Shown piece by piece: positions 12,178 through 34,010 of a stretch of DNA of 64,000 bases. Made by a program: the position numbers and the translations under genes. Positions within the stretch are counted from its first letter, which is position 1; each line of letters opens with the position of its first letter. The notes beneath the pieces were generated by a model, which saw only the letters and a list, made by a program, of their open reading frames with translations, was not told the DNA's origin and did no database searches. The stretch lies in assembly GCA_964464815.1 (NCBI GenBank), contig CAYXHF010000004.1:2483-66482 (forward strand). Direction: 5' to 3'. Source of the stretch: an uncultured Faecalibacterium sp. (GTDB lineage Bacteria > Bacillota > Clostridia > Christensenellales > Aristaeellaceae).

Positions 12178-12225
12178 GGTCTTTACCCTCCTTACGATTT
12201 CGTATCCGCAAGATACGTATACCCT

Positions 12226-12255: not shown

Positions 12256-12414
12256 GGGGGATTTGCCGGTAAAACTGGGGTTTTTCGCCCGAAAAAACAA
12301 AAAAAGACCGTGCAAACCCTTGATTTTCCTGACTGGAAACGTTACCGTACTTGCTTTGTTTTTTTGGTGTATTTCTGGCCAATTTGCTGTCCCAGGCACC
12401 CAGTAGGCCCTTGC

Positions 12415-14763: not shown

Positions 14764-14785
14764 GCGTCTGTCCTCATTTTCCCAT

Positions 14786-16111: not shown

Positions 16112-16153
16112 TTTTCCAGCTCCTTCTGTAAAAAAACGCGGTTTTGCCCGCGC

Positions 16154-16684: not shown

Positions 16685-16715
16685 CGCCTACACCTCCTTA
16701 TTATTGCCTCCGCAT

Positions 16716-18005: not shown

Positions 18006-18392
18006 AACGCCGGTTCACCTCCTGATGCATTCATTCGACGCAAGGTGTTTGTCCCTTCCGTCTGGATGGCCATCTATGGTTCATGTCGTACAACAATTGT
18101 TTCATTTCCCATTCATCCACCCACACAGCGCACACAAAGCCGCATCCGCATGGTCTGGGTAGACAGTTTATTATACCATAGGAAGCACATTTGTGCAACC
18201 TTTCCACCGGGATTTGCCCTTTTCCGCAGCCAAAAAGCCACTTTTTCGAGACATTTTCGTCTTTTTTGTCCAATTCTCTTGCTTTTTGCAGGAATTTTTG
18301 CTTTTCTTTTCCAGAAAATCCGAAAGAATCAGCGTTTCGTATATGGAACAGCACAGCTGGATTTTACGCCATTTTCTTATATACACGCAAGT

Positions 18393-18433
18393 CAAAATTA
18401 CGGGCAGCTGCCGCATTTGCCGCAACTGCCCGT
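18393..18433 (-). terminator. intrinsic terminator after the GH30 gene
   Basis: On the minus strand: ACGGGCAGTTGC, loop, GCAGCTGCCCGT (12 bp including one G-U), followed by AATTTT. Confidence 0.6.
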
Positions 18434-18439
18434 ACTCCG

Positions 18440-19897
18440 TTATTCACTAAACACAATCGTTGTGACCGACATCGGTGTCAGCACAAACGCCGTGTTCGCC
18501 ACACGCTCGCTCGTCTGCACCAAATCGCGCCCAGCCGACGTTTCGTAGGAGACAATGCGCTCGTAGCATCCATCATGCCCGCTGAGCTTGACATTTTTCT
18601 CCTCGTTGCTGTCGTTGACCAGTACCACAACCAGCTTCTTCTTGCCGTACTCCTCGCCGTGGAAGGCCACACCAGAGAATTCCTCCGCACCCGTCAGTTC
18701 CACACGCTTGAAGCCCGGACGGATGTAGCGCGTGTAGTTGCCGTAGGCCCACAGACGCTTGAGCGGCACAATGTTGATTTCTCCCGAACCATTTTCCGTG
18801 GCATGAATCAACCCGTCATGATACCCGCCGGGAGATACCTCCACCCACGTGGCCCAGGAAACCGCATTGAGTACCGTCAAGTCTTCCGCCACCGTCTTGG
18901 CCAGCACAATGGCAGAATCCATGCCCACATCCGTGCCGTGTACCATCTCGCACCATTCGCTCATGCGAATCTTGACGTCCGGATAGTGTACGTCCATCCA
19001 GTTGCGGAAGCTGATTTTACTCTGCGTGTTCGACCAGTAGGAGTGGCAGTCAATCGCCTTGAAATGCTCCTTCAGCGTCTGGTTGTTCAGGAGGGCGCTG
19101 ACGTACTCCGGCGTCTTGCCGCCCCATTCGCCGCTTTCCGGGCCGGAAAGCTCCACACCCGCAAGCTTCGGACGCTTTTCCAGCTCCTTCAGGAAAGCCA
19201 CATAGACCGCCGCAATCTGCTCCGGCTCATAGTGGCAGCCCTCCTGACCGCCGGTCCAGTCCCACTGCGGCTCGTTGATGGGGGAAATGAAGCGAACCGG
19301 AATGCCCATGTCCACAAAATGCTCCGCCACATCACAGGCGTAAATCGCCCATGCGCCGTAGTTCGCCGGATCAATGTTCGTGCGCTCGCCACCGGCGGTC
19401 ATGTGCGCCATGCCGTTCTTGGTCAGGCGCTCAATGGGGCTGTTGAAGAACAGCACCACTTCCTCCGCGCCCAGACGAACCGTCTCCTGCATGAACCAGA
19501 CAGCGCCTTCGTCCTTGGACCAGTCGTAGACACCTGCTTCTGTCTCAAAGGACTGCGCGCGACGGTTGACATCGCTGTAATCGCCCTTGCCGCTGTCGGC
19601 AGAGCCTGCACCGATGTTGTAGCGGTAGTTCGTCAGTCCGATGCCCCAGTTGCGATCGTAGAGGAGCGTTGCCAGCTGCTCACGTGCCGTGCGACCCGTG
19701 TTCAGGTAGGGCGTGTCCCACAGACCCGCATACTGCGTCCACCATGCGCCACTGCCACCAAAGGATTCCATCGTCTGGTATTCCTGCGTCTCGTTAATCT
19801 TCACCTGTGTCACCTCCGCATTCGCCTCCGGAATGCCCACCACGGGCAGCAGAAGCGTTCCTGTCAGGATGGTTGCCAGTAGTTTTTTGATTCTCAT
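18440..19897 (-). CDS. secreted glycoside hydrolase, family 30-like
   Basis: Signal peptide MRIKKLLATILTGTLLLPVVGIPEANA. ESFGGSGAWW, SPINEPQW (acid/base Glu) and MSEWCE (nucleophile Glu) fit clan GH-A / GH30. GGAGG lies 8 nt before the ATG at 19897. Confidence 0.7.
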   Translation of the reverse strand: MRIKKLLATILTGTLLLPVVGIPEANAEVTQVKINETQEYQTMESFGGSGAWWTQYAGLWDTPYLNTGRTAREQLATLLYDRNWGIGLTNYRYNIGAGSADSGKGDYSDVNRRAQSFETEAGVYDWSKDEGAVWFMQETVRLGAEEVVLFFNSPIERLTKNGMAHMTAGGERTNIDPANYGAWAIYACDVAEHFVDMGIPVRFISPINEPQWDWTGGQEGCHYEPEQIAAVYVAFLKELEKRPKLAGVELSGPESGEWGGKTPEYVSALLNNQTLKEHFKAIDCHSYWSNTQSKISFRNWMDVHYPDVKIRMSEWCEMVHGTDVGMDSAIVLAKTVAEDLTVLNAVSWATWVEVSPGGYHDGLIHATENGSGEINIVPLKRLWAYGNYTRYIRPGFKRVELTGAEEFSGVAFHGEEYGKKKLVVVLVNDSNEEKNVKLSGHDGCYERIVSYETSAGRDLVQTSERVANTAFVLTPMSVTTIVFSE

Positions 19898-19984
19898 GCT
19901 CTTTTCCTCCATGGAAATGGGGGACGCAGCAGGAAGCAGCCATTGCCACCCCTGCTGCGCAGGATACACCGTCAGAGATACCAG

Positions 19985-21001
19985 TTAGCCAACCAGGCCG
20001 GAGTTTTCCAGATTCTCCACCAGCCAGCGCTGTGCAAACAGGTACAGCACCAGCAGCGGCGCCAGGAAAATCAGCGCGCCCGCCTGCTTGAGGGCGTCGA
20101 AGGTCATGTCCGTGGTCATCGGGACGTTGTACCATACGCGCACGCGCTCCAGCAGGGTAATCTTGTTCGCATCAATGAAGGTCGTCGCCAGCTTGTTGGC
20201 CATGTACGGGCCGTTCGGGTCGAAATAACGGGTGAAGTAGGTGTCACCGTAGTTCCACACGAACGCCAGAATCGCCACGGTCACGATGGCCGGGATGGCA
20301 TTGGGAATCATGATGCGGAAGTAGGTGCGGTAGAAGCCGCAGCCGTCAATCAGCGCCGCCTCCTCCAGCTCCTTGGGGATGTTCTTGAAGAACTGGCTGA
20401 AAATCAGGATGAACAGGGACTGATTGACGCCAAAGCCCAGAAGCGCCATCAGATACAGCGTTGCGGGCTGACCAATCAGGTTCACCTCCTGACCGAAGAT
20501 GCGCATGATGCCCATGGCATCAAAGTGGTTGAAGTAGATGTACTGTGCCAGCAGCAGGGACTGACGCGGCACGAGGAAGGACAAGACCACCAGCACGAAC
20601 ATCAGCGGGCCAAGGAACTTGTACTTCACGCGCGCCATCGTGTAGCCCGTCATGGCGGCAATGAAGACCTCAATGACCATCAGCAGGAAGGCCGTGCCGA
20701 CGGACTTGACCATCGTCATAATGCCTTCCGGCATGGTCATGCGGGCCGCCGCCTGGAAGGAGATGGTGGAGAACTCCTCCGGAATCCAGATGACGTTCGG
20801 ATTGCCCAAATCCTCAATATTGGACAGCACCGACGGCACCAGACGCAGGAAGGGATACAGAATCACAAAGCACAAGCCCGCAATCAACAGGAACGTGACC
20901 AGATTCATGAAGAACTCGCCCGTCTTTTTCTTCGCCAGATAGATATTCTGCTCCGGCGAAAGCTGCACCTTGCGCTTTTTCCGCTTGTTATTTTGCATCA
21001 C
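19985..21001 (-). CDS. carbohydrate ABC transporter permease (MalG-like)
   Basis: Six TM segments. EAA-loop region ELEEAALIDGCGFYRTYFRIMIP. Confidence 0.9.
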   Translation of the reverse strand: MMQNNKRKKRKVQLSPEQNIYLAKKKTGEFFMNLVTFLLIAGLCFVILYPFLRLVPSVLSNIEDLGNPNVIWIPEEFSTISFQAAARMTMPEGIMTMVKSVGTAFLLMVIEVFIAAMTGYTMARVKYKFLGPLMFVLVVLSFLVPRQSLLLAQYIYFNHFDAMGIMRIFGQEVNLIGQPATLYLMALLGFGVNQSLFILIFSQFFKNIPKELEEAALIDGCGFYRTYFRIMIPNAIPAIVTVAILAFVWNYGDTYFTRYFDPNGPYMANKLATTFIDANKITLLERVRVWYNVPMTTDMTFDALKQAGALIFLAPLLVLYLFAQRWLVENLENSGLVG

Positions 21002-21890
21002 CCTTCACCACCTTTCGCATCACCAGCAGCGCGATGCCCAGCATCAGCGTTACGTTAAAGATGTAAATGACCGACAGCGCCGAACCAACACCAATCTCGT
21101 TCTTCGTGAATGCCAGCGCGTATGCCTCCTCGGCAATTCGGCTGGTCAGGAAGAGATCGACGATGGTGTAGATGACGACGAACATCACAATGTGCAGGAT
21201 GGAGGGAATCGTCACCTTCCAGAAGGTTTCATACGCCGTTGCGCCCTCAATCTTCGCCACCTCATACATGCTCGGGCTGATGGATTGCAGCGCGGCCAGG
21301 AACACCAGCGTCTGGACGCCGGAACGGGAAATGACCGAGAAGATATTTTCCACAAAGCTGATGATGGAGGTCAGATACGTCGTGGGAATCGACGTATAGC
21401 GCGTCAGCGCCATGGCCACCATGCTCTGCTGGAACAGACCGCCGCCGGCCTGCACCCAGTCGCTGCCGGTGGAAACGGTCAGCATGTCCGTGACCACATC
21501 CAGACCCAGAATGATGGGCAGGAAGAAAATCATACGGACAACCGCGCGACCCTTGAACTTGCGGTTCGCCAGCAGCGCCAGGAACAGCGACAGCAGCGTA
21601 ATCAGCGGCAGATTGATCAGCACGTTTGCATTTTCGTCCGTCAGCACACGCATGATGGGCTGATTGTCCGTGGACAGGACGGAGGCAAACAGGTCGATGT
21701 AGTTCTGGCCACCAATGAATTCAAACGCCATGCGGCCGCCATCCGGAACGGTGATTTCCTGAAAGGAGTAGAACACCGTCATGCCCAGCGGGTAGGCAAA
21801 GAAAATGATGAAACCCAGCAGAAACGGAATCAGGAACGTGAAGCCCAGCAGCTTTCGCTGTGTCGTATACGAAATGCCCTTTTTGCTCAT
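20988..21890 (-). CDS. carbohydrate ABC transporter permease (MalF-like)
   Basis: Multi-TM protein. EAA-loop-like YEVAKIEGATAYETFWKVTIP. Overlaps both neighbouring genes. Confidence 0.9.
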   Translation of the reverse strand: MSKKGISYTTQRKLLGFTFLIPFLLGFIIFFAYPLGMTVFYSFQEITVPDGGRMAFEFIGGQNYIDLFASVLSTDNQPIMRVLTDENANVLINLPLITLLSLFLALLANRKFKGRAVVRMIFFLPIILGLDVVTDMLTVSTGSDWVQAGGGLFQQSMVAMALTRYTSIPTTYLTSIISFVENIFSVISRSGVQTLVFLAALQSISPSMYEVAKIEGATAYETFWKVTIPSILHIVMFVVIYTIVDLFLTSRIAEEAYALAFTKNEIGVGSALSVIYIFNVTLMLGIALLVMRKVVKGDAK

Positions 21891-24487
21891 TCTGCCGTCC
21901 CTCCTTCCACAGGATGAATGCCGCCTTCAAAAATCTGATAGCTCACCGGTGCAATCACAACGCCGTTTTCCGCCTCGTAGGGCTGTGCGCTGTAGTTCGT
22001 CAGCACCACCGCGCCGCCGGAGTAGGTCGTCTGCGCCACCTCGTCGGTCAGCATGCAATGCGCGGTAATCGTCTGGCCACCCAGCATCGCGCGCATGTCC
22101 GCAAGCGCCTGTGCCGCCTTGTCGATTTCCGACTGCCATTCGTTCCACTGCACCGCGTACAGGTTTTCAAAATGGCTGTTCTTGAGGACGTCGGAATTCT
22201 CATACGTCACCTTATACTTCACCCACGTGCCCAGCTCAGCCGCCTGGCACAGGTAGTAGTTCAGCGTGCGGGAATTCAGATTCGCATCCTCCGTTGCCAC
22301 CGTCGTCAGGCCACGAAGCGCCAGCTGACGGAAGGGAATGGTCAGCGCAAAGGAGGTGTATGCACTGCTGCGGCGAGAGACGTCCACGGAGAAGGCCGTC
22401 AGCGGCGCATAGCGTGCATCGGGATTGGACAGCGACAGGGACTGCTCGCTCAAGCTGTCAATCACGCCCGAAACGATGGTGTCTGCCGCCACAGGGTTGA
22501 TGACATTGCGATAGCGGTAATCCACAAACACGTCATGTCCCAAATCCTCCGCCGCCACACCTGCGGACAGGTTGAGTGCCTGATATTCCTTCAGGAACTG
22601 ATTCGCCACATCCGCCAGATAGCGCGGAGAAACGCGCGTGTAGTAGCGCACATAGGACGAACGGCCGTTGAACTTCGCCGTGTCCGGTGCGTAGGGGTAA
22701 ATCTCTGCCGTTTCGTTGCCGAAATCACGCAGCGCATGCGTCGAGGGACGATAGGTGCGGCCCGGACGATACACGCGGCTCAGGTTCGCTTGCAGGAAGA
22801 CCTGCTGCCCCTTGGCATTCGCCGCCGTCAGCACCGATTCCAGCGCCGCCTTCGTGCCGTTTTGGGACACCAGACGCGCGCCGTCGTTCAGCTCCGACAC
22901 CAGACCGCCATTGAACGCGCCGTCATACTGAATCGCCGCGCCCTCAGGCAGTGCATTGGCCATTTCCGCCAGCTGGTCGTAGGTCGTCATGGAGCAGATG
23001 GCGTCATACGGCACACCCAGCACGTGCTCGGTCATCGTGACCGCGCCAACAGCCTCCACATACAGGTTCGCGTCGTAGCCCTCGTTGATGGTCGCGCCCG
23101 TTTTTGCCGCCAGATAGGCACGGGTCGTTTCCGCCATGTCGAAGTATGTCACCTTGTGTGCGTAGGGGTAGTAGCGCACGGTGAAATCCACATTGATATG
23201 ACCGGAGTCAGACAGATACGTCGCGCCGTTATCCGCATACGCGCCGTAAATCTTGACCTTGGTGTATTCCAGCACGTCCACCGAGGGGTAAATCTTGTTG
23301 CAGCCCGAACCCGACGTCGCCGCAATGGAGACATGCAGATTCGCCGTTTCCACGCCCTGTTCAATGATGGCCAGCAGGCCATTGTCGGCCTCCATGCCGC
23401 CATAGAGCGCGCCGAAGACAGGCGTCATCAGCTCCTCCGGGTATTCGGACTGGTAGTAGTAATCCGTGTAGTAGTCATTATCCAGATACGCACGCACGTA
23501 TTCCGGAACCGTCGCGCCGAAGGTGTTGAACTGCATCAGCGCACCCGCACCATCGGGCGTGAGGAAGTAGCCATCCTGCTTATCCGCCGCCGCAGAGGAA
23601 CCGAAGTTCGGCAGCAGGCAGACACGCTGAATCTCGTAGTAGTCGTTGCCCGTCTTCATTTCCTGCGAGGGCAGACGCGCCACCAGCTGACCATTGTCCA
23701 GCGTCAGCTCCAGCACCAGATCAAACAGCGCCGGTTCGTGGAACTCCGGCACAACGCCGAAGGCCGCACAGTCCTCAATCAGCATTTCGCGCGTATAGCC
23801 AATGGCACGCGTCATTTCAATCAGCTGCGCCGAGGCCGACACCGGCGGCTTACCGGCGGAGGTCAGCACGTAGGCATTCTCGCGTTCGCGCTTGGTGTAC
23901 ACCATCTTCAACGCGCGATTGTAGCGGCTTTGCAGCGTTTCATCCAGCTGTGCAATGGCCGGCTGGATGAATTCCTCATAGCGATCAATCGGAATGCGCT
24001 GAGGCAGGTATTCAAAGAATTCCTTGGAATCGCCCTCGTTGACATTCATTTCAATGCGCACGCCGTTTTCCAGCTGGTACAGGCTGTACGAGCCAAACGC
24101 CACGCAGTTGTCATAGGTGTTCCAATCCAGCAGGTTATTGTCTTCACCCAGATAGTACAGGCGAAGCAGCGCCTTGTCGATGCCTTCCTTCGCCCCATTG
24201 ACGGCGCTGGACCAGCTGGTGCCACTTTCATCATCCGTCAGGGTGAAAATCAGCTCCTCGGTATCCAGCGTCAGGGTGCGGCCGCCCTCATGGGCCACCT
24301 CCACCGTGCCACCAACCGGGATGCTTTCGCCAATCGCGGAGGTTTTCGCCGTCTGCACCGGAATCTCAGCAGCAGACAGCCGGAAGGACGGCGCATAGTA
24401 GCCCACATAGCAGGCAATCGCCAAAATCACCAGCAGCAGCGTCCACAGGATGGGATGCGCGCCGTAAATCTCTTTGATTTTTTTCAT
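21887..24487 (-). CDS. 866-aa membrane-anchored extracellular protein of unknown function (DUF5696-like, tentative)
   Basis: Single N-terminal TM segment (ILWTLLLVILAIACYVGYY), then a large hydrophilic body. The family name is recalled from similar loci and was not verified. Confidence 0.6.
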   Translation of the reverse strand: MKKIKEIYGAHPILWTLLLVILAIACYVGYYAPSFRLSAAEIPVQTAKTSAIGESIPVGGTVEVAHEGGRTLTLDTEELIFTLTDDESGTSWSSAVNGAKEGIDKALLRLYYLGEDNNLLDWNTYDNCVAFGSYSLYQLENGVRIEMNVNEGDSKEFFEYLPQRIPIDRYEEFIQPAIAQLDETLQSRYNRALKMVYTKRERENAYVLTSAGKPPVSASAQLIEMTRAIGYTREMLIEDCAAFGVVPEFHEPALFDLVLELTLDNGQLVARLPSQEMKTGNDYYEIQRVCLLPNFGSSAAADKQDGYFLTPDGAGALMQFNTFGATVPEYVRAYLDNDYYTDYYYQSEYPEELMTPVFGALYGGMEADNGLLAIIEQGVETANLHVSIAATSGSGCNKIYPSVDVLEYTKVKIYGAYADNGATYLSDSGHINVDFTVRYYPYAHKVTYFDMAETTRAYLAAKTGATINEGYDANLYVEAVGAVTMTEHVLGVPYDAICSMTTYDQLAEMANALPEGAAIQYDGAFNGGLVSELNDGARLVSQNGTKAALESVLTAANAKGQQVFLQANLSRVYRPGRTYRPSTHALRDFGNETAEIYPYAPDTAKFNGRSSYVRYYTRVSPRYLADVANQFLKEYQALNLSAGVAAEDLGHDVFVDYRYRNVINPVAADTIVSGVIDSLSEQSLSLSNPDARYAPLTAFSVDVSRRSSAYTSFALTIPFRQLALRGLTTVATEDANLNSRTLNYYLCQAAELGTWVKYKVTYENSDVLKNSHFENLYAVQWNEWQSEIDKAAQALADMRAMLGGQTITAHCMLTDEVAQTTYSGGAVVLTNYSAQPYEAENGVVIAPVSYQIFEGGIHPVEGGTAE

Positions 24488-24504
24488 TGCGTTTCCTCCC
24501 TCCT

Positions 24505-25137
24505 TTATAGTCGCCGCATGAGCTCTTCGCCCACGTCAATGAAGAAATTAACCATGCGCTCCAGCATCGTGAACAGCAGCACACCCAGGAACAGGATGAT
24601 GAGGGCCGCCACGACCGTCAACAGAATGGATGCCAGGTTGCCACCCAGGGAATACTCATGAATCGTGCCCAGACCGGCCACCACCAGGAAGCCGAACCAG
24701 ACATACACCAGCATCTGAATGGAGGTCAGAATCATGATTTCCTCAGTCGTGACAAAGTTACTCATGAAGCAAATCAAGGCATCGCCGATAATCAGCACCG
24801 TCAGGGAGTAGCATAGGACAACGAAAATATCCTTGAGCTTGCCCTTGCCATTGAACAGGGTCGTGATAGTCCAGTTGGACACACTGGCCCGCAGGAAAAT
24901 CGACACCGAACGGATGAAGATGGACACGCTATCCATCATGGCCGGGTCGGAGGTATTCATTACAAAGCCCGTGTACTGATACTTCAGGCATTGCAGCACC
25001 CCATAGGCCGCCAGCAGCAAGCACGCCAGCAGCAGCGACCCCTGATTGCGGAAGCGGATTTCAAAGAAGCCATCAAAGGGATGAATCAGCGAGTAGCCCC
25101 AGTAACGGAGCTTTTCGCGGGACAAAATGCGCTTCAT
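24505..25137 (-). CDS. Yip1-family integral membrane protein
   Basis: 210 aa with five hydrophobic segments after a short cytoplasmic N-terminus. Yip1-like topology. Start overlaps the stop of the upstream gene (25134..26600) by 4 nt; separated from the downstream gene (ending 24487) by a 17-nt gap. Confidence 0.65.
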   Translation of the reverse strand: MKRILSREKLRYWGYSLIHPFDGFFEIRFRNQGSLLLACLLLAAYGVLQCLKYQYTGFVMNTSDPAMMDSVSIFIRSVSIFLRASVSNWTITTLFNGKGKLKDIFVVLCYSLTVLIIGDALICFMSNFVTTEEIMILTSIQMLVYVWFGFLVVAGLGTIHEYSLGGNLASILLTVVAALIILFLGVLLFTMLERMVNFFIDVGEELMRRL

Positions 25138-26600
25138 TTGCTCTCCCTCCTAACCTTGCGATGATACGCCGCCTCTGACCAGATGACCGCGCCAATGAGA
25201 ACCACTGCCACCACCGCGATGACGCCGAAGTTATCGCGCATCTTTTCGCTGCGGTAGCCCTTGTATGCCTTGGAATAGAATTCGCGGTTGTTGCCCAGCT
25301 TGAAGTAGTACATGGCCTGCTCGTACTCTTCCTGCATCAGGTAGTTTTTCCCGATGCCGACATAAGCCGTTTCCAGGTTGCCGCACAGGCGCAGCACCTC
25401 TTCATACCACGCTGTCGCTTCGTCCCAGCGGCCATGGTAGTAGCTTTCGCTGGCACGCAGCAGCGCCGTGCCGAATTCCGTGGGTTCCAGGATGTAGACG
25501 CACTTCAAGTCCGCATCACCAATGACCAGCTTGTCGCCAAGCCATGCCACGGCGCTGGGATTCTTCATTTCGCCCTGCAAGTTGCCCGCAGAGCCCATCG
25601 CGCACAGCAATTGCCCATTGAAGTCATACAGGAAGATGTGGCCACGGGTCTTGTCCACCAGCGCATACGTACCGGTTTCATTGACCGCAATGTCGGTAAA
25701 GGCACTGGGATTCTGTGTGTGCGGATCGCCCACAACCAGCACGGAGCCTTCCTGGCGCAGCACGTTCTCTCCCTTGAAATTCAGGCGATAAACCATCTGC
25801 GACGCCGCCGAGTCATTCGTGACGGCCATGATGAAGCCTTCTCCATCCAGCGTGATGTTGTTGAACGCCGGTGCATACTGCTTGCCCATTTCTTCCTTCT
25901 GCTCATCGCTGGCGATGGACTTCCAGAAGTAGTCAATCAGGTTGACCTGCGGTTCGTTGACGCCGAAGTAGCGGGAGAACGTGCCGTCCTCATTCAGCTC
26001 GATGATGCCCTCATAGGAGGATTGCACCACCAGATAGATGCGGTCGGCGTTATCCACCGTCACCTTGGACGGCTTGAATTCCGTCGCACCGGACATATCC
26101 GCCGGGCGCGTAATCGTCCGCTTGTGGGCATAGGTGAGGCCGTCCAGCACAATCACGCGCTGCGCCTGCGTATCGGCAATGTAGATTTCCTGCGCCTTCT
26201 CGTGATAGAACACGCCCTCGCAGCCCGTCAGCACAAGCTGAGAACCATCGGGATTGAGCGCAATCTTGTTGTTTTCGTCACGGATGGTTTTCAGCGTCTT
26301 GAGCATTTTGCCCGTGCTGTCCAGCACGTGAATGCGGCTTTGACGGCTATCGACAATGAAGATACGGCCGTCCTTGCTGGTGCAAACATCGTCGATGCGG
26401 TCAATCGTAATGCCCTTCAGGTTCTCCGAGGTAATCACCTGCGTGAGCAAGAACGGTGCGGGCGTGTTGTGAATGTTCACCCAAAAGTCAAAGGTATAGC
26501 CCTGATAGGCATTGCTCGTGCCATCCGCCGCCAGGGCGAAGGAAGGCAGAAGCATCAGCATGCAGAGGGTCAGCAACAGAAGCTGTTTGATTCGTTTCAT
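25134..26600 (-). CDS. secreted NHL/beta-propeller-repeat protein with a TPR-like region and a C-terminal TM anchor
   Basis: Signal peptide. Repeated strands of the type DGRIFIVDSRQSRIHVLD / QEIYIADTQAQRVIVLD. TPR-like YEQAMYYFKLG. C-terminal TM segment VIAVVAVVLIGAVIW. Confidence 0.65.
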   Translation of the reverse strand: MKRIKQLLLLTLCMLMLLPSFALAADGTSNAYQGYTFDFWVNIHNTPAPFLLTQVITSENLKGITIDRIDDVCTSKDGRIFIVDSRQSRIHVLDSTGKMLKTLKTIRDENNKIALNPDGSQLVLTGCEGVFYHEKAQEIYIADTQAQRVIVLDGLTYAHKRTITRPADMSGATEFKPSKVTVDNADRIYLVVQSSYEGIIELNEDGTFSRYFGVNEPQVNLIDYFWKSIASDEQKEEMGKQYAPAFNNITLDGEGFIMAVTNDSAASQMVYRLNFKGENVLRQEGSVLVVGDPHTQNPSAFTDIAVNETGTYALVDKTRGHIFLYDFNGQLLCAMGSAGNLQGEMKNPSAVAWLGDKLVIGDADLKCVYILEPTEFGTALLRASESYYHGRWDEATAWYEEVLRLCGNLETAYVGIGKNYLMQEEYEQAMYYFKLGNNREFYSKAYKGYRSEKMRDNFGVIAVVAVVLIGAVIWSEAAYHRKVRRESK

Positions 26601-26612
26601 TGCACACCCTCC

Positions 26613-27527
26613 TTAATCCTTCATGCCCGAGGTGGACATGGTTTCAATGACGTTGGACTGGCTGATGACGAACACCGCCACCGGCACAATCATCATAATC
26701 AGCGATACCGCAGAGGACACGCCAGTACGCGCGATGCCGCCGGAAACCAGCTGGCTGAGCACGTAGGAGACAGGCTTCAATTCCTCCGAGTAGATGAATA
26801 CGCCGCCCGTCGTGCCCCACATCTGCTGGAAGGACAGGATAATCAGCGTAATCCAGGCCGGCTTACAAAGCGGCATGATGATGCGCCAGTAGATGGTGAA
26901 CTCATTCGCGCCGTCAATGGTCGCGGCCTCCAGCAGGCTGTCCGGAATCTGGCCGATGAAGTTCTTCATCAGGTACAGACCCAGCGTGCCGCCAACAGCC
27001 GTCAGAATCACGGCCGCCTGCGTATTGACCAGACCCATGTAGGACATAATCAGGTAGCAGGGAATCGCCGTCACGGACGAGGAGAACATCAGCGCATAGA
27101 CAATCAGGCTGCTCATCAAGCGGCTGCCCGGGAATTCATACTTCGCCAGTGCAAACGCCGCCAGAGAGCCAAGAATCACCGTGCCCAGCGTACCAAAGCC
27201 CGTGATGAACGCCGTGTTCCACAGATAGCGGCTCATCGGCACATCGAAGGACTCCAGAATGTAGGCCAGATCGAAGAAGTTGTTCAGCGTCGGGTTGTCC
27301 ACCGTCAGACGCGGCGGGAAGATGAAGATTTCGCTCATCGGCTTGAACGCGCTGACCACCGTATACACCAGCGGGAAGAGCGAGAACAGACCGAAGCAGC
27401 CCAGCACCACCGACAGGGCGATGTCCACCGCCAGAGAGCGGCGGCGACGCAGCTTGCGACGGCGCAATGCCGCCATCAGGCCCGTCTTCTTGGGCTTTTT
27501 GGGATAGAGGTTCTTTTTCTTAGCCAT
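26613..27527 (-). CDS. carbohydrate ABC transporter permease (MalG-like), second pair
   Basis: Six TM segments. EAA-loop LLEAATIDGANEFTIYWRIIMP. Confidence 0.9.
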   Translation of the reverse strand: MAKKKNLYPKKPKKTGLMAALRRRKLRRRRSLAVDIALSVVLGCFGLFSLFPLVYTVVSAFKPMSEIFIFPPRLTVDNPTLNNFFDLAYILESFDVPMSRYLWNTAFITGFGTLGTVILGSLAAFALAKYEFPGSRLMSSLIVYALMFSSSVTAIPCYLIMSYMGLVNTQAAVILTAVGGTLGLYLMKNFIGQIPDSLLEAATIDGANEFTIYWRIIMPLCKPAWITLIILSFQQMWGTTGGVFIYSEELKPVSYVLSQLVSGGIARTGVSSAVSLIMMIVPVAVFVISQSNVIETMSTSGMKD

Positions 27528-27543
27528 TGTTCTTTTCTCCTCC

Positions 27544-28452
27544 TTATCCCAGTTTGCGCAGGACCTTCTGCACCAGAATGTTGCAGAAAATCATAATCAG
27601 GAACAGAATCACAGCGATGGTACAGGCATAGCCCATTTCATAGCGCAAATTGCCGTAGTCATGCAGGTGCGTCATGATGGTATGACCCGCGTAGTTCACC
27701 GACGGGAAGCCGACCAGGTCCAGGCTGATCTGGCTGACGGAGAAGGACGAGGTAATCTGCATGACCGCGCCGAACATCAGCTGCGGCTTCATGGCCGGCA
27801 GGGTGATGTACCACAGCTCCTGCCAGCGGTTGCGGATGCCTTCCACCGCACCGGCCTCATACATGGCCTTGTCCACCGTTTGCAGACCGGCAATGAAGGA
27901 CAGGAAGGACACGCCAAGGCTCAGCCACAATTGCACGATAATCAGAATCGGCATGATGTAGCTTTCCGTGGTCAGCCACAGAATCGGCTCCTGAATCAGC
28001 CCCAGCTTCATCAGCCAGGCATTCATCCAGCCGTAGGTGTCGGAGGAGAAAATCAGCTTCCAGACCAGATACACGTTACCGGAGATGGACGGCGCGTAGA
28101 ACACCAGCGTCATCACCGCACGCGGAATCGGCGGCAGCTCGTTAATCAGCCACGCGAACAGGAAGCACATCAGGTAGGACAAGGGGCCTGTCATGACCGC
28201 GAACACCAGCGTGTTCTTGATGGCCGTGAGGAACACATCGTCCTCGACAATCAGCGTCACATAGTTGCGCATGCCGACCCATTCGGGCATCGAGGTCATA
28301 TTAAAGGAAGTAAAGGACAGCAGGATAGCCGCCATTACCGGCAGCACCGTGAACAGTACGAACACGATGGCAAAGGGCAGCACCATCAAATACTGGTTGC
28401 GGTACTTTTTCAGCGCCGCACCAAAGCTCATTTTCTGGGCACTTTTGGTCAT
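27544..28452 (-). CDS. carbohydrate ABC transporter permease (MalF-like), second pair
   Basis: Six TM segments. EAA-loop YEAGAVEGIRNRWQELWYITLP. Confidence 0.9.
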   Translation of the reverse strand: MTKSAQKMSFGAALKKYRNQYLMVLPFAIVFVLFTVLPVMAAILLSFTSFNMTSMPEWVGMRNYVTLIVEDDVFLTAIKNTLVFAVMTGPLSYLMCFLFAWLINELPPIPRAVMTLVFYAPSISGNVYLVWKLIFSSDTYGWMNAWLMKLGLIQEPILWLTTESYIMPILIIVQLWLSLGVSFLSFIAGLQTVDKAMYEAGAVEGIRNRWQELWYITLPAMKPQLMFGAVMQITSSFSVSQISLDLVGFPSVNYAGHTIMTHLHDYGNLRYEMGYACTIAVILFLIMIFCNILVQKVLRKLG

Positions 28453-28462
28453 GGCCGTGTGT

Positions 28463-31363
28463 TCACTCCTTTCCAGCGCCGTTCCAGGTGTCCTGTGTGG
28501 ACAGGCCGAATTCTTCGCGCTTCTTCGTCAGTTCGCGGTCAATATCGCGGATGTTGAGGTACAGGGTTTCACGCGGGTTGCTCAAATCGGCCACAACGTC
28601 CTCAAACGCATAGCCAATCATGCGCGTGTTCATGTAGTAGCCCGGCACAGCAGGCATGCTCCACAGGTGGTCAAACTGGCTCAGCAGCTGGCGCAGCTCG
28701 TCATTGCTCCACGGCAGCTGGCGAATCACGTTCGGGTCGGCCGCCGGATAGCGCGCCGCCGTGCCCATGATGGCCTCCAGTGTGTTGGCGTAGGACAGCT
28801 GCGTTTCGGTGCTGTTCCACCACTTGACGAATTCCCAGGCCGCGTCCTTGTCGTCCGCGCCCTTCATGATGACGCTCTGCACCGTGTCACAGACGTAGGT
28901 GTTGTCAAGCGTGCCGTCTTCCTTTTCCGTACCAAGGAAGGGGGCAAAGCTCCACAGGCCCTTGATTTCCGGCGCGAAAATTTCCAGCGTGCAGAACATG
29001 GTGTAGTCCGTCACACCGATGGGCATTTCGCCCGTGCGGAAGCGGTTGGCAAAGTCCGCCTGCACGTCCAGACCATGGACGGTGAACAGGTCCGTATACC
29101 ACTTGAACGCCTCCATGGCCTCATCGTTGTAGAGTGCGGAGGCCACGCCGTAGTCGTCCCCTTCACCCAGATAGATGTCGCCACCGTTCTGATACACCAT
29201 GGCGCTATACACATTCAGACCCGTCGCCACACGCGTGGAGGGCATGTAGCATGCATAGTTTTCACGGCTCAGAACAGGAATCATTTCCATCAGCTCTGTC
29301 CACGTGGACGGCACGGACAGACCCAGCTCATCCAGAATGTCCTTGCGATAGAAGACCATCTGGAACGTCACCTGCTCCGGAATACCCCATGTGCCTTCCT
29401 GATATTCGCAGGCACGCAGCACGCCCTCCGGATACCGGCTGACGCACTCGTCAAAGCCTTCCATCTGGCTCAGCTCCACCGTCGCGCCACGCATGGCGAA
29501 GTCCTGGCTCGTCGCCTGGCTCAGGCCAATCACGACGTCCGGGCCGTTGCCTGCCAATGCCGCACGCAGCACCACATCCGTGGGAATCAGCTGTAGCTTG
29601 ACGCTGATATCCGTGTTGGGCGAGAAGGTTTCATCAATCATGTTCTGAATCATCTGCGCCTGTTCGCGGCCAGCAGAAGCCATCCAGACCGTGATGGTGC
29701 GTGCCTTGCCCGTATCATCGGACACCACGCTGGACGTGGAATGGAAGAAGGTCGCAATAAAGCGGCGGAAGCCCATGACAATGCCGTCAAACCAGTTTTC
29801 CTGCGCCGGCGGGAGCGTATCCACACCGCCCGAAATGGACAGGCTGTCCAGCTCCAGCGGCATGGTGGAGACATTCACCATCCACGTGCCCAGGGCAGAA
29901 ATGTTGTTCTTGAGCTGCGACAATTCGCCCACGATTTCTTCCGGCTCGCGCGCCAGCTTCTGGGCTTCAATGGCCATCTTTTCCAGCAGGGCCGTGTTTT
30001 CGCCCTTTTCACCGGTAATGGCCACCATCTCGTCCACCATCGCAAAGAGGCGTTCGCTCTCCGCCGTCATGGTATCAACGAAATCCGGAATCTTCTTGGC
30101 AACCTCGTAGTCGATGAACTGGCTCGGCGTCTGGCCGGTCAGCTGCACGGTGCGCAGATAGAGGTTGTTCAGCGTTTGCAGGGATTCCTCCACCTGGCTC
30201 ACCACGCCGCCAACGCTACCCAGCACGCATTCCAGCGAAATCTCGTTTTCACCCTTGTTCAGGTAGATGTAGTACGGCGTACCATCCGCCTGCGCCACGG
30301 TGTAATGCTGCATCGCGCTGGCATACTGGAACGCCAGCACCTCCGCCTCGGCAAAGGGCACTTCGCCATTGACCTTGAGGCGGCGATAGCTCGTCACGCC
30401 GCGCGACGCCTGACGACCCTTGAAGGACAGCACGTAGAGGCCATCCTCCGGCGCGGTAATGCGCCACGTGATTTCATCACCCGGCTGCGCCCAGTTGTCC
30501 GCACCAATCGTGGAATACAGGATGTGCCAGGGATGATAGGGCACCAGGGCGCTGTCAGAATAGTTCTTCTGAATCGTGATGGACGGCGAGGACTTCAAAA
30601 TGTCCACCGTGCCGCCTTCGCGACGCTCCGCCTGACAGACAACCGGTTCGCCCTGATAGACCGCACCCTGCTGCTGCCATGCCGCCAAAACCTCAGCATA
30701 CGGCGCAGCCTTTTCTGCCGCACCGAAGGTCAGCTCTGTAATTTCCATCGGTTCCTTGACCGACACAAAGGACAGCGTGTGTTCACCCGCAGAAAGGTAG
30801 AAAATCAGCGGCGCGCCACTGCGGCGGTTGTAGTCCTCCAGCCAAACCTTCTGCTCCTGATACACTTCCGTCGCGTTGGGGCGAATTTCGTTTTCATTCT
30901 TCAAACGAATCTCTTCATCCGTCCAAATGCGCTTGAAAACAATCTGCGTCATGGCTTCATACGACGCCTCGCCATCCAGCAGCACCTTGCGCTGAATGTC
31001 GGAGGTCGTACCCGGCAGGGCAATATAACCCACATGCAGGTTATAGAAGCCTTCCGTTTCGACCGTAAACGTCCAGTCGATGCGGCCATCATCGCCCGTC
31101 AGCACACCATCCTGACCATTTTCCGCCACCATGCCGTCCTGCGCAGTCCAGGCCGTCACGTCCAGCGTGATGGTTTGATCAGACAGTGCATCTGCATAGC
31201 CGGTTTTGTCCAGATAGGTCTGATAGCTTTCCTCACGTGCCGCCACCGAGCTACCCGCCGGTGTTGCCGACATATGCTCATTTCCGCCCAGCAGCAGCAG
31301 GCACAGCACTGCAATGATGACCACCACCGCAGCAATCAGGATTGCCTTCGTCTTCTTTGACAC
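28463..31363 (-). CDS. 966-aa membrane-anchored protein: CBM-like modules, a helical linker and a C-terminal family-1 solute-binding domain
   Basis: N-terminal TM segment (AILIAAVVVIIAVLCLLLLGG). Two roughly 150-aa beta-rich segments with similar patterns (GFYNLHVGY... / GLYVLSFKG...). The C-terminal ~430 aa resemble sugar SBPs (TITVWMASAGREQAQ..., WGIPEQVTFQMVFYRKD). Confidence 0.8.
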   Translation of the reverse strand: MSKKTKAILIAAVVVIIAVLCLLLLGGNEHMSATPAGSSVAAREESYQTYLDKTGYADALSDQTITLDVTAWTAQDGMVAENGQDGVLTGDDGRIDWTFTVETEGFYNLHVGYIALPGTTSDIQRKVLLDGEASYEAMTQIVFKRIWTDEEIRLKNENEIRPNATEVYQEQKVWLEDYNRRSGAPLIFYLSAGEHTLSFVSVKEPMEITELTFGAAEKAAPYAEVLAAWQQQGAVYQGEPVVCQAERREGGTVDILKSSPSITIQKNYSDSALVPYHPWHILYSTIGADNWAQPGDEITWRITAPEDGLYVLSFKGRQASRGVTSYRRLKVNGEVPFAEAEVLAFQYASAMQHYTVAQADGTPYYIYLNKGENEISLECVLGSVGGVVSQVEESLQTLNNLYLRTVQLTGQTPSQFIDYEVAKKIPDFVDTMTAESERLFAMVDEMVAITGEKGENTALLEKMAIEAQKLAREPEEIVGELSQLKNNISALGTWMVNVSTMPLELDSLSISGGVDTLPPAQENWFDGIVMGFRRFIATFFHSTSSVVSDDTGKARTITVWMASAGREQAQMIQNMIDETFSPNTDISVKLQLIPTDVVLRAALAGNGPDVVIGLSQATSQDFAMRGATVELSQMEGFDECVSRYPEGVLRACEYQEGTWGIPEQVTFQMVFYRKDILDELGLSVPSTWTELMEMIPVLSRENYACYMPSTRVATGLNVYSAMVYQNGGDIYLGEGDDYGVASALYNDEAMEAFKWYTDLFTVHGLDVQADFANRFRTGEMPIGVTDYTMFCTLEIFAPEIKGLWSFAPFLGTEKEDGTLDNTYVCDTVQSVIMKGADDKDAAWEFVKWWNSTETQLSYANTLEAIMGTAARYPAADPNVIRQLPWSNDELRQLLSQFDHLWSMPAVPGYYMNTRMIGYAFEDVVADLSNPRETLYLNIRDIDRELTKKREEFGLSTQDTWNGAGKE

Positions 31364-31494
31364 GGAATCACCCCTTCAGATCAGTGTATCAGAGCCAGCG
31401 CAACTGGCTCTCCTCATCAGGAAGCAAATAGCTCCCCATACAGCCTGTGCCGCTCCATTGATATTGCTATCCAGCTTGACAAACGTATAATAAG

Positions 31495-31545
31495 CGAAAA
31501 AGAAAGCGGGCGTCGGTCAGGCTATTGGCCCGTGAAACGCCCGCC
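31495..31545 (-). terminator. possible intrinsic terminator after the 662-aa SBP gene
   Basis: On the minus strand: GCGGGCGT, ~24-nt loop, ACGCCCGC, followed by TTTCTTTTTCG. The loop is long, so confidence is moderate. Confidence 0.4.
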
Positions 31546-31617
31546 GGATTACCGGGGATTCATGCTTCCGGCTGTCCCGCAAGGCAGGAGGCAGCCGGAA
31601 GCCCTTGTTTCAGAGGA

Positions 31618-33606
31618 TTACTCGGCGACGACAGTCACGGTCACGTCGGCGGTAGCGGTGTTGCCCGCATAGTCCGTCACGGTCAGCGTCACATTATATT
31701 CGCCAGGCGTCGTGGTGTCCAGCTCGGACAGGTCGGCGGTCACGTTATCCTTCAGATTCAGACCAGCCGCATCCGTTGCGGTCTCCACATAGTCGTTGGC
31801 CCAGTTGATGGTGGCGGTATCCGCATCCATCGCAACCGTGGGCAGCTCAGCCTTCAGGGTCAGGGTCGGCGCAACCGTGTTGGCGGGATCGTACACAACG
31901 ACCTTCACCTTCGCGCTGCCTTCGTTGCCAGCCTTGTCCGCGAAGATACCCTTGAGGTTGTATTCGCCAACCGTCGCGGTATCCACGTCGGTCAGACGAT
32001 AGGTGGCCATCGCGGGATCCAGCACGCCGTCAAAGCCGTCCTTGGCGCTGAAGTAGGGCGTGAAGTCCACGGTGTTGATGTCGGTGCCCAGGGGCAGCAC
32101 GACGGTGCCGTTGGTGGAAACTTCGGGAGCCTGGTTGTCCACGATCTCGCTGGAGCCCAGGATGGCTTCCATCTTGGTCATGGTAGAGGCGAACTCGCTG
32201 ATGTTGGCAGCGATGGCCACTTCATAGGAAGCCATGCCGTCCACACCGTAGAAGCCCTTGCCCAGAATCTTGTCCCACGGATCGCGCATGCCCAGCAGGT
32301 TCGCGAAGTCGTTCGGGACGCACTTCTCGGCGTTGAAGATGAAAGCATTCAGGATGCCTTCGCCGTAGGTTTCGTTCAGGATATCCAGACCATAGGTGTT
32401 CATGGCTTCGTTTTCAGACATGACGGCCTTGTACGCGTCCATGCTTTCAACGCCAGCCTTGAGGCTGTAGTAGGTTTCCCAGTACAGACGGAAGGATTCC
32501 ATGGCCAGACGAGCCTTATCCTCGTCAATGCCCTTCAGCACGCCCCAGATATCGCCGACGGAGACGACCTGACGATATTCGTCAGAATCCTTCGCAACGT
32601 CGTCAGGACGCGGCCAGGGCATCAGCGCCACGGACTCGCCGCGCGCGGTGCAAGCGTCAACCTGGCCCTTCACGTGCCAGTTCGGGCATTCCGCGAAAAC
32701 CGTCGCGCCACGGCCGAAGTCGTAGCCGGATTCGCACCACTGGGGCGTATAACCATCGTCATACACACCGCAGTCCACCATCAGGCCCTTTTCACGCAGG
32801 GAGCGGATGAAAGCAACCGCCTCGATGGTTTCTTCGGAGTCAACCTGCAGGCCCTTCGCGCCGTAGATCGCGCCGCCGTTGGAGTACACAGCAGACAGCG
32901 TGGCGAAGCGGTGGTCGGTTTCATACGCCTGAACAGTGGAAACCTTCGCGCCGTCGGGAGCAGGCGTGTTGGCGTAGTACGCCTGAATCTTGGCCAGGTA
33001 GTCTTCAAAGACGCTCCAGGTCCACTTGTCCTGCGCCAGCAGGTCAGTGGGGTAAATGGTGTTGCCGTTTTCGTCCTTGAGGGAATCAACCTTCTCGATC
33101 ATGGTCATGTTGACCAGCAGCGGGAAGTACTGATTGAAGGAAACGTTGCTGTTGATAAAGTAGTTGTGACCAAACACCTTATCGGGCAGCATCCAGTCAG
33201 CGCCTTCAAACACGTCAGCGTAGGCATCCAGCGGCTGCAGGATGTTCTGCGCCAGAACGGTGTATTCAGAGCCGTTCCACATCAGGGCCACGTCGCAAAC
33301 CGGATTGCCAGCCAGCACGCTCAGCACCAGCTCAGAGCGGGTGTCCTGTGCATACTGCACGTATTCGATCTGCACGTTGTACTTTTCCAGGACAGCCTTT
33401 TCTGCTTCGATGCGCAGCAGACGGTCATCCTCATTGCTCATGCAATATTCGCCCGTGGTTTCATTGATCTTGTGGGGATCCAGGCCATCGGCCCAGTGCG
33501 TGCCCCAACGAATCACGATCGGTTCGCTGGTGGTTTCGGCGGCCGCCAGGCTCACCATGGAGCACAGCATCGCCAACGCCAGGAACAGGGCAGTCAACTT
33601 CTTCAT
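31618..33606 (-). CDS. secreted solute-binding-like protein with C-terminal tandem Ig-like domains
   Basis: Signal peptide MKKLTALFLALAMLCSMVSLAAA. SBP-like body. The last ~170 aa form two repeats ending ...GEYNLKGIFADKAGNEGSAKVKVVVYD and ...GEYNVTLTVTDYAGNTATADVTVTVV (Big/DUF5011-like). Confidence 0.75.
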   Translation of the reverse strand: MKKLTALFLALAMLCSMVSLAAAETTSEPIVIRWGTHWADGLDPHKINETTGEYCMSNEDDRLLRIEAEKAVLEKYNVQIEYVQYAQDTRSELVLSVLAGNPVCDVALMWNGSEYTVLAQNILQPLDAYADVFEGADWMLPDKVFGHNYFINSNVSFNQYFPLLVNMTMIEKVDSLKDENGNTIYPTDLLAQDKWTWSVFEDYLAKIQAYYANTPAPDGAKVSTVQAYETDHRFATLSAVYSNGGAIYGAKGLQVDSEETIEAVAFIRSLREKGLMVDCGVYDDGYTPQWCESGYDFGRGATVFAECPNWHVKGQVDACTARGESVALMPWPRPDDVAKDSDEYRQVVSVGDIWGVLKGIDEDKARLAMESFRLYWETYYSLKAGVESMDAYKAVMSENEAMNTYGLDILNETYGEGILNAFIFNAEKCVPNDFANLLGMRDPWDKILGKGFYGVDGMASYEVAIAANISEFASTMTKMEAILGSSEIVDNQAPEVSTNGTVVLPLGTDINTVDFTPYFSAKDGFDGVLDPAMATYRLTDVDTATVGEYNLKGIFADKAGNEGSAKVKVVVYDPANTVAPTLTLKAELPTVAMDADTATINWANDYVETATDAAGLNLKDNVTADLSELDTTTPGEYNVTLTVTDYAGNTATADVTVTVVAE

Positions 33607-33738
33607 ACGGAAAACGACCTCCTTCTTCTACAGCATTTTCCTAACCCATTCAGGAAAATCGCTGCTGGGCAAAAGAGCAAGCGGCCCGCTTTGCTTCTCA
33701 GCAATCAGGCCACGCTTTTTTGCCCTTCTGTGAATATT

Positions 33739-33767
33739 ATATTAACGTGATTTGTCCGATTTGTCAA
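33739..33767 (-). promoter_or_regulatory. candidate sigma-A promoter of the 662-aa SBP gene
   Basis: On the minus strand: TTGACA (33767-33762), 17-nt spacer, TAATAT (33744-33739). A second TTGACA sits immediately upstream (33773-33768). Inverted repeat GATTTG-N7-CAAATC overlaps the -35 region. Confidence 0.45.
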
Positions 33768-33954
33768 TGTCAAATCTGGATATAGTAGCACTTTTACCAA
33801 ACCTAAAACGTTTGAGAAGTCATTTCGGTGTGTTTTTCGGCATTTTGCGACAAAAAAGCCACCGAAACAAACAGCTTTTTGGATGCATTGCCGAAAGCGG
33901 TTTCAAAAAATCTGAAATTTTCCTTTTTCCTGTGAAAAATTGGCATGTAACCTT

Positions 33955-34010
33955 GCAAAAAGCGCCTCCCATCCACGACATTTTCGTAAATGGGAGGCGA
34001 AATTTTTTTA
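33955..34010. terminator. bidirectional intrinsic terminator after the activase-fusion gene
   Basis: CGCCTCCCAT, 17-nt loop, ATGGGAGGCG, flanked by an A-run and a T-run (CTTTTTGC on the minus strand). Confidence 0.7.

Follow-up and report, generated by a model that had tools for sequence, protein, structure and literature searches.

The 64,000-nucleotide stretch of Faecalibacterium DNA analysed here (the window) carries, at positions 18440–33606, a block of ten consecutive genes that we read, with a probability of about 0.65, as a self-contained glycan-foraging operon of a gut Clostridium. On this reading, the block would serve the capture of a glycan at the cell surface, its trimming and its import, by means of two importers of the MalFG (CUT1) type and a set of cell-surface enzymes. 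Faecalibacterium and related Clostridia are major butyrate producers of the gut, and their means of capturing complex glycans in the absence of a Sus-like system are understood only in part.

We propose that the secreted glycoside hydrolase family 30 (GH30) enzyme encoded by the last gene, g10, would cut the polymer outside the cell, while modules of g02 that resemble carbohydrate-binding module family 35 (CBM35) would hold the glycan at the membrane and the binding domain of the same protein would feed oligosaccharides to the first permease pair (pair 1, g03 and g04). The products of g05 and g06 would form a membrane scaffold that places the anchored, GH129-like DUF5696 ectodomain of g07 beside the second permease pair (pair 2, g08 and g09). 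There, DUF5696 may trim or hand over a second class of oligosaccharide, with g01 delivering to pair 2. Both translocators would be powered by a shared ATPase of the MsmK/MsmX type encoded elsewhere, and expression would be controlled in trans, probably by a repressor of the LacI/CcpA type. An initial annotation, made from the letters of the window, had suggested a multi-protein apparatus for surface capture and import; the two sets of binding protein and permeases, the membrane anchors, the GH30 enzyme and the conservation of the block as a unit all argue for it, as judged from sequence comparison and predicted models.

The listing of open reading frames (ORFs) gives the ten genes as g01 to g10 in the direction of transcription (Table 1). 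All ten lie on the minus strand, as the initial annotation had stated; its total of eleven genes was a miscount, its own list comprising ten items. Its spacing figures agree with the measured intergenic distances, which run from g01 to g10 as 254, 10, 16, 12, −4, 17, −4, −11 and 87 nucleotides (nt). The genes g02–g09 are tightly packed (−11 to +17 nt), with the start of g06 overlapping the end of g05 by 4 nt and the start of g08 overlapping the end of g07 by 4 nt, and the two wide gaps are the outer ones, between g01 and g02 and between g09 and g10. Most of its domain labels were likewise borne out by Pfam and NCBIfam, namely SBP_bac_1 in g02, the four permeases, NHL and TPR repeats in g05, Yip1 in g06 and Glyco_hydr_30_2 in g10. 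The genes on either side are unrelated to the block: upstream lies a CoA-enzyme activase, and downstream lie MurA, a DnaJ/TPR protein and an amidase.

The two complete MalF/MalG-type permease pairs that had been claimed are present. Pair 1 consists of g03 (MalF/UgpA-type) and g04 (MalG/UgpE-type), and pair 2 of g08 (MalF/UgpA-type) and g09 (MalG-type). All four proteins match BPD_transp_1; g03 and g08 score below the Pfam cut-off, yet both have an F-type NCBIfam match (UgpA). The EAA loop is retained in each, at residues 199 (g03), 200 (g04), 210 (g08) and 214 (g09). Permeases of the MalFG type act as importers. The pairs are only distant paralogues of one another, at 25–27% identity.

Each pair can be tentatively matched with a binding protein. 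The g02 protein begins with a transmembrane helix (residues 7–25), followed by two CBM35-like β-sandwich modules (residues ∼93–206 and ∼296–384), a helical linker and a CUT1-type binding domain (residues ∼550–945). The binding domain matches SBP_bac_1 in Pfam (residues 572–855, E 4e-22), and binding proteins in the PDB, including Lin1841 (E 2.6e-15). The second β-sandwich module matches the CBM35 of cycloisomaltooligosaccharide glucanotransferase (CITase; 5x7g, E 4.5e-5 by profile) and, more weakly, 3wnp and 2w47, and an hhalign comparison shows the two modules to be homologous (probability 96.8%, E 2.5e-10). The g01 protein is secreted, and its AlphaFold2 (AF2) model, built with 20 homologues (predicted local distance difference test, pLDDT, 84.3), displays a MalE-like fold at residues ∼30–485 and then two C-terminal immunoglobulin (Ig)-like domains. 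Foldseek matched this model to CbpB, MalE and GacH (E ∼1e-13, TM-score 0.56–0.70). By sequence or profile, g01 gave no binding-protein match in Pfam or the PDB; in Pfam it matched Bact_surface_Ig-like (residues 597–659), and in the PDB its Ig-like tail alone was matched. It is, however, homologous to the canonical SBP_bac_1 proteins of two distant loci that encode DUF5696 (L015 and L016, described below). No significant similarity was found between the N-terminal domain of g01 and the binding domain of g02 (hhalign probability 1.4%, nothing by BLASTP), and the two are therefore not recent paralogues. The g01 protein is probably the partner of pair 2: in locus L020 a g01-like gene lies directly 3' of pair 2, and the binding protein of L015, which has only a pair 2-type importer, resembles g01 and not g02. 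MalF/MalG subunits with an EAA loop thus occur twice, as does a MalE-fold binding protein (g02 by sequence, g01 by fold and homology), and the locus holds two complete sets of binding protein and permeases.

The block is conserved in relatives. Eight further loci from Clostridia carry the full set of ten genes in unchanged order (L001, L002, L003, L005, L006, L007, L010 and L011) at 35–97% amino acid identity; these loci include a Faecalibacterium metagenome-assembled genome (MAG; L001, 81–97% identity), Candidatus Fimimorpha (L002), a member of the Lachnospiraceae (L003), two Clostridia MAGs (L005 and L006) and a member of the Aristaeellaceae (L007). Pair 1 is among the most conserved parts of the block (g03 and g04, 73–96% identity) and DUF5696 is its fastest-evolving protein (35–81%). 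The flanks differ by lineage, comprising rpoB and RecG; GH35; glutamine synthetase; GH28, GH88 and AraC; or LacI with GH35. Since the block is kept as a unit amid unrelated flanks, it is a discrete, selected unit. The initial annotation had named synteny in related genomes as one check, and a block not conserved as a unit as one outcome that would speak against it; the loci found here go in its favour. A metagenome scan with the DUF5696 alignment added only four loci.

More distant DUF5696 contexts, sampled in eight loci, fall into a double form (type A; L013, L016, L018 and L020) and a single form (L014, L015, L017 and L019). The double form keeps g05–g09, that is, the NHL/TPR protein, Yip1, DUF5696 and pair 2, in all four loci; those whose upstream side was sampled (L013, L016 and L018) also keep g02–g04, and upstream of L020 the end of a g04-like permease is seen. 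The GH30 gene is present in L016 only and absent from L013, L018 and L020. In L018, four consecutive proteins of 520–670 residues with no Pfam match stand in its place (14569–22106), followed by GH88; these may be further glycan-active proteins. The single form comprises an NHL(-TPR)-Yip1 fusion, collinear with g05 and then g06 (Table 1), together with DUF5696, a single pair of permeases and a binding protein of ordinary type (420–450 residues), which follows the pair in L014, L015 and L019 and precedes the fusion in L017. Its neighbours vary, among them a GH33 sialidase with NanA, NanK and NanE, a GH130-like enzyme and a GH29 fucosidase, and often a regulator. The permease pair of the single form is orthologous to pair 2 (100–147 bits) and not to pair 1 (37–70 bits), and g08 is the orthologue of the permease directly 3' of DUF5696 in every sampled locus.

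The NHL/TPR protein, Yip1, DUF5696 and pair 2 are, then, a module that stays together over deep divergence and that also occurs alone with an ordinary binding protein. In terms of gene content, the locus is a composite in which one module (g02–g04) is nested inside a second (g01 and g05–g09), with the GH30 gene (g10) as an accessory. The interleaving of transporter genes with large envelope proteins, which the initial annotation had rightly described as non-standard, arises because an importer set is nested inside a separate, self-standing module.

Within the second module, g05 carries a signal peptide, an extracellular NHL β-propeller, TPR repeats and a C-terminal transmembrane helix (residues 460–478), as assigned from Pfam (NHL and TPR) and from PDB matches to the NHL proteins Thin and TRIM71 (∼1e-8) and to TPR proteins. 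The g06 protein is a polytopic membrane protein of the Yip1 family (PF04893, 55.1 bits against a cut-off of 28.6) with at least four transmembrane segments. As the NHL/TPR and Yip1 parts are fused elsewhere, g05 and g06 would act together by the Rosetta-stone argument. A PADLOC scan of g05–g07 found nothing, and a reading of these genes as a defence system was therefore rejected.

The g07 protein, the 866-residue anchored protein of the initial annotation, is a full-length DUF5696 protein (Pfam, 381 bits) with a single N-terminal transmembrane helix. Its AF2 model is of moderate quality (pLDDT 65.8, predicted template modelling score 0.56) and comprises the transmembrane helix, well-predicted N-terminal β-sandwich domains, a central alternating β/α region and a C-terminal β-sandwich. 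Foldseek matched it, each time with probability 1.0 and a target-normalised TM-score of 0.40–0.58, to GH129 (5opq, E 2e-23; 5wzn, 4e-19), GH36 (∼1e-10), GH101 (∼1e-9) and also GH31. The three-domain fold with a central (β/α)8 barrel is thus found, on a model of this quality, whereas sequence membership of GH129, GH36 or GH101 is not: searches of the PDB by single sequence and by profile gave no match, and Pfam at E up to 10 returned only DUF5696. On the model, we consider g07 a membrane-anchored putative glycosidase or glycan-docking subunit with a GH129/GH36/GH101-like three-domain fold, and DUF5696 a candidate new glycoside hydrolase family. Conservation across 32 family members at 19–38% identity singles out a set of polar and acidic residues (Table 1) that looks like an active or ligand-binding site. 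A catalytic pair of D588 and D656, whose 68-residue spacing recalls GH36 and GH31, was set aside because D588 varies across the family. The family is large, with 4,424 clusters at E ≤1e-3 and 2,163 at E ≤1e-30 in a profile search of 1.84 billion representative proteins.

A bolder and still tentative proposal, which we think more likely wrong than right, is that NHL/TPR-Yip1 and DUF5696 dock physically, as obligatory subunits, onto MalFG-type importers that form a clade of their own. In such an ‘enzyme-coupled importer’, a membrane-anchored GH129-like ectodomain over the permease would couple trimming to uptake. A non-catalytic role for DUF5696 is the strongest competitor, although we regard it as unlikely, at around one chance in four: DUF5696 would be a glycan-docking or gating subunit that forms, with NHL/TPR-Yip1, a generic extracellular funnel for a special importer clade, hydrolysis being left to variable neighbouring enzymes, here GH30. 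The NHL-Yip1/DUF5696/permease module is indeed constant while the enzymes around it vary (GH30, GH33, GH29, GH130, GH106 and GH88), DUF5696 has no sequence similarity to any glycoside hydrolase family even by profile, and D588, the candidate catalytic residue in the subfamily of the window, is not conserved family-wide. On the other hand, some seven polar or acidic residues are kept in at least 28 of 32 such divergent sequences, as is usual for an active site, every fold match is to a retaining glycosidase, and the fast evolution of DUF5696 within the block is what would be expected of a substrate-facing enzyme.

The g10 gene encodes a secreted GH30 protein with a signal peptide (Pfam Glyco_hydr_30_2, PF14587, 175.7 bits against a cut-off of 27, E 2e-51), in which the motifs INEPQW (NEP) and MSEWCE (SEW) are visible by eye in the translation. 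Of its 17 GH30 matches in the PDB, the best is 3clw (GH30 subfamily 4, GH30_4; 99 bits, 2e-27); the xylanase subfamilies 7, 8 and 10 score 46–58 bits (E 1e-11 to 8e-15), and the GH30_5 galactanase 24td is matched at 3e-12. NCBIfam equivalogs score far under their cut-offs, XynC with 33 bits against 650. By sequence, g10 appears nearest to GH30_4, an uncharacterised subfamily with a −1/−2 cleft similar to that of a β-1,6-galactanase (PMC13431644). The searched literature holds nothing mechanistic on Faecalibacterium and GH30. A GH35 β-galactosidase adjoins the block in two lineages (L003 and L007), and GH28 and GH88 adjoin it in L002. On account of the GH30_4 best match, the low xylanase scores and these neighbours, we favour over xylan, with low confidence, a plant glycan that contains β-galactan (for example type II arabinogalactan or pectic side chains) as the substrate class. 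The initial annotation had suggested a β-1,6-linked glycan or xylan; the xylan half of this loses ground.

That the target is glucuronoxylan or another xylan is, in our estimate, improbable. GH30 contains many xylanases, g10 does have matches in subfamilies 7, 8 and 10, and some CBM35 modules bind xylan or glucuronic acid. Yet the best xylanase score is 58 bits against the 99 bits of GH30_4, the XynC score is a small fraction of its cut-off, and no xylosidase, xylose-utilisation gene or GH10, GH11 or GH43 gene adjoins the block in any of the loci, where GH35, GH28 and GH88 are found instead.

The block could also be two ordinary, independent sugar ATP-binding cassette (ABC) importers with unrelated envelope genes, held together by operon inertia and with no functional link between g05–g07 and the transporters. 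CUT1 importers without an ATPase of their own are common (PMC7658222), and the distance between the two permease pairs and the unrelated sequences of g01 and g02 would fit this explanation. It is nevertheless a long shot: at a DUF5696 identity of 22–35%, the 17 sampled loci still share their gene order although their flanks are unrelated, four of them have NHL/TPR fused to Yip1, and orthologues of pair 2 always lie directly 3' of DUF5696, often with overlapping stop and start codons. Least probable of all, with odds of some twenty to one against it, is that the block recycles or remodels a surface glycan of the cell itself (capsule, exopolysaccharide or wall polysaccharide), to which the adjoining MurA and amidase genes of the window and an invariant DUF5696 site that could mean a common self-derived substrate might point, but the flanks change from lineage to lineage (rpoB and RecG, GH35, glutamine synthetase, dnaJ), related loci lie within clear nutrient pathways (sialidase with NanA/K/E, fucosidase, rhamnosidase), and the block has no accompanying glycosyltransferase or export genes.

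For the foraging operon, both importers would have to be energised from outside the locus. A MalK/MsmK-type ATPase is not encoded in the block or its flanks, and none of the 17 sampled loci has an ATPase gene. The window as a whole holds no more than two Walker A sites, in ORFs that do not look MsmK-like and that, from their sequence context alone, we read as one Opp-type (site at ∼4502) and one exporter-type ATPase. All four permeases keep the EAA loop, and therefore both pairs need an ATPase. Many MalFG-type importers of Firmicutes are energised by one shared ATPase, MsmX in B. subtilis or MsmK in streptococci (PMC7658222, PMC5730181, PMC4519317), and the shared ATPase invoked in the initial annotation stands: an enzyme encoded elsewhere would have to serve both pairs. 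As a separate observation, the Opp-type ABC system of the window (ORFs 3438–9261) adjoins another unusually long binding protein (9718–12399, minus strand, 893 residues, SBP_bac_5).

Nor does the block carry a regulator, as the initial annotation had noted: domain scans of the window genes found none in the block or adjoining it. That statement is weakened by LacI, AraC or GntR genes beside related blocks (L003, L002, L017 and L014) and by two operator-like palindromes upstream of g01 (Table 1). Palindromes of this class also precede the g01 orthologue in L001, in L007 and in L002, where one is a perfect cre (TGAAACCGCTTTCA). Both palindromes of the window lie upstream of a promoter-like site, which itself sits 3' of a strong terminator-like hairpin at 33963–33999 (16-bp stem), located 3' of the CoA-enzyme activase gene. 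We treat the palindromes as a lead only. The motif TGAAANCGNTTTCN is a putative candidate site for a LacI/CcpA regulator, and control of expression in trans is probable, on thin sequence evidence. Within the 254-nt gap, a GC-rich hairpin just 3' of g01 could act as an incomplete terminator or could stabilise the mRNA; it has no Rfam family match, and an Rfam scan of the locus and its leaders gave sub-threshold noise only. L005, L007, L013 and L016 likewise have a gap of 140–225 nt behind their first binding-protein gene, a pattern in keeping with differential expression of that gene or with stabilisation of its mRNA.

Several points weigh against the foraging operon as drawn here. No ATPase that would serve the importers was found within the 64 kb analysed, and L003, L005, L006, L010 and L011 have no operator-like motif upstream of their block. 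The pairing of binding proteins with permeases has gene order and homology as its sole basis, and the substrate is drawn from neighbouring genes in two to three lineages and from an uncharacterised GH30 subfamily. Confidence in the g07 model is only moderate, parts of the putative barrel being disordered in it, and the conserved DUF5696 residues could not be placed onto the catalytic residues of GH129 or GH36. These residues are, moreover, the same across loci with very different neighbouring enzymes, which is no less compatible with a generic role than with a hydrolase specific to one substrate.

Table 1. Coordinates of the block genes, leader elements, conserved DUF5696 residues (g07 numbering) and NHL(-TPR)-Yip1 fusions
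Feature	Position	Strand	Length or occurrence	Remark
g01	31618–33606	minus	662 aa	
g02	28463–31363	minus	966 aa	
g03	27544–28452	minus	302 aa	
g04	26613–27527	minus	304 aa	
g05	25134–26600	minus	488 aa	
g06	24505–25137	minus	210 aa	
g07	21887–24487	minus	866 aa	
g08	20988–21890	minus	300 aa	
g09	19985–20998	minus	337 aa	alternative start at 21001, 338 aa
g10	18440–19897	minus	485 aa	counted from the ATG ahead of a clear signal peptide
cre/LacI-operator-like palindrome TGAAACCGCTTTCG	33892–33905	minus		pattern search; 299 nt upstream of the g01 ATG
second operator-like palindrome CTCAAACGTTTTAG	33803–33816	minus		pattern search; counterpart in L001, CGGAAACGTTTTAG
promoter-like site TTGACA-17-TAATAT upstream of g01	33739–33767	minus		consensus match only, 10/12 positions
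GC-rich hairpin GCTTCCGGCTG ... CAGCCGGAAGC	31564–31602	minus	11-bp stem	no T-run; just 3' of the g01 stop; read from sequence
DUF5696 conserved residue	D312		32/32	PDGSG motif
DUF5696 conserved residue	N736		32/32	
DUF5696 conserved residue	E751		31/32	
DUF5696 conserved residue	H810		31/32	
DUF5696 conserved residue	E376		30/32	
DUF5696 conserved residue	D656		28/32	
DUF5696 conserved residue	D239		28/32	
NHL(-TPR)-Yip1 fusion, L014	7855–9981		∼710 aa (705–718 over the four fusions)	
NHL(-TPR)-Yip1 fusion, L015	3193–5310			
NHL(-TPR)-Yip1 fusion, L017	2696–4834			
NHL(-TPR)-Yip1 fusion, L019	138–2294			

The surroundings of the block yielded some further observations. The upstream neighbour (34025–38299, minus strand) encodes a single polypeptide of 1,424 residues with BcrAD/BadFG-type ATPase domains, DUF2229 and a weak HGD-D-like region, and by its domain content is a fused CoA-enzyme activase. 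Downstream, between the genes for MurA and N-acetylmuramoyl-L-alanine amidase, lies a 176-residue protein with a DnaJ J-domain and TPR repeats (16154–16684, minus strand). Long plus-strand ORFs run antisense to the real genes within 18191–33750 (for example 21860–24661, 933 residues, and 25434–27596, 720 residues); their translations are rich in Arg, His and Gln, and they look like compositional artefacts of a sequence of 57% GC and not like genes. The GC content of the block (0.55–0.60) equals that of the rest of the window, and no sign of recent horizontal transfer was seen.

Compared with CUT1 importers of the MalEFGK2 type that use a shared MsmX or MsmK, the locus is alike in its MalF/MalG permeases with EAA loops, its MalE-fold binding proteins and the lack of an ATPase gene in the operon (PMC7658222, PMC5730181, PMC4519317). 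It differs in having two translocators in one operon, in the membrane anchor and two CBM35-like modules of g02, in the Ig-like domains of g01, and in the NHL/TPR, Yip1 and DUF5696 proteins that are conserved together with pair 2. Measured against Gram-positive polysaccharide utilisation loci in general, it has an enzyme beside a transporter (g10, with g07 glycoside hydrolase-like by fold) but no regulator within the locus. We know of no DUF5696, Yip1 or NHL module described for the β-mannan loci of Faecalibacterium prausnitzii. Those loci (PMC8262883) share with the block an ABC importer beside a glycoside hydrolase in a gut Firmicute and conservation across strains and species; the ATPase is not discussed in that paper. 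The present locus differs in its lack of a regulator gene and in the reuse of its DUF5696 module with different enzymes elsewhere.

The predicted three-domain architecture of g07 is like that of GH129, represented by the 3,6-anhydro-D-galactosidase ZgGH129 (5opq) and the α-N-acetylgalactosaminidase NagBb (5wzn), and of GH36, GH101 and GH31 (Foldseek E 2e-23 to 1e-9), from which g07 differs by the absence of detectable sequence similarity, by its transmembrane anchor and by an extra N-terminal region. For Yip1, a parallel is YknWXYZ of B. subtilis, in which the Yip1-family protein YknW accompanies an ABC transporter of the exporter type that has a membrane-fusion protein and its own ATPase. Both systems encode a Yip1-domain membrane protein alongside an ABC transporter to which it presumably binds, but the present transporter imports with the help of binding proteins, and its Yip1 protein is linked to an ectodomain of the NHL/TPR kind.

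Three features set the locus apart from described systems: the presence of two translocators in a single operon, the fusion of an anchored binding protein to CBM35-like modules, and the widespread NHL/TPR-Yip1 and DUF5696 module. DUF5696 is mentioned in no open-access paper searched, the searched open-access literature gave nothing relevant on Yip1 together with a solute-binding protein, a glycoside hydrolase and a permease, and the module is, as far as the searchable literature shows, undescribed. What the comparison brings out is that DUF5696, a family of ∼4,400 clusters, is tied in a systematic way to sugar ABC importers and to a membrane protein of the NHL/TPR-Yip1 kind. If these proteins do form a complex with the permeases, they would represent a new accessory architecture for a very well-studied class of transporter, and DUF5696 with NHL-Yip1 would be a marker for glycan-utilisation loci in Firmicute genomes. 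The likeness to the Sus-like (SusCD) systems of Bacteroidetes would be one of logic only, in that genes for a surface enzyme, surface glycan binders and a transporter sit side by side and the set is reused for many glycans, while the proteins and the envelope are entirely different. An enzyme-coupled importer, if it exists, would be a Gram-positive counterpart of the SusCD utilisome, a cassette reused for many glycans across the Clostridia.

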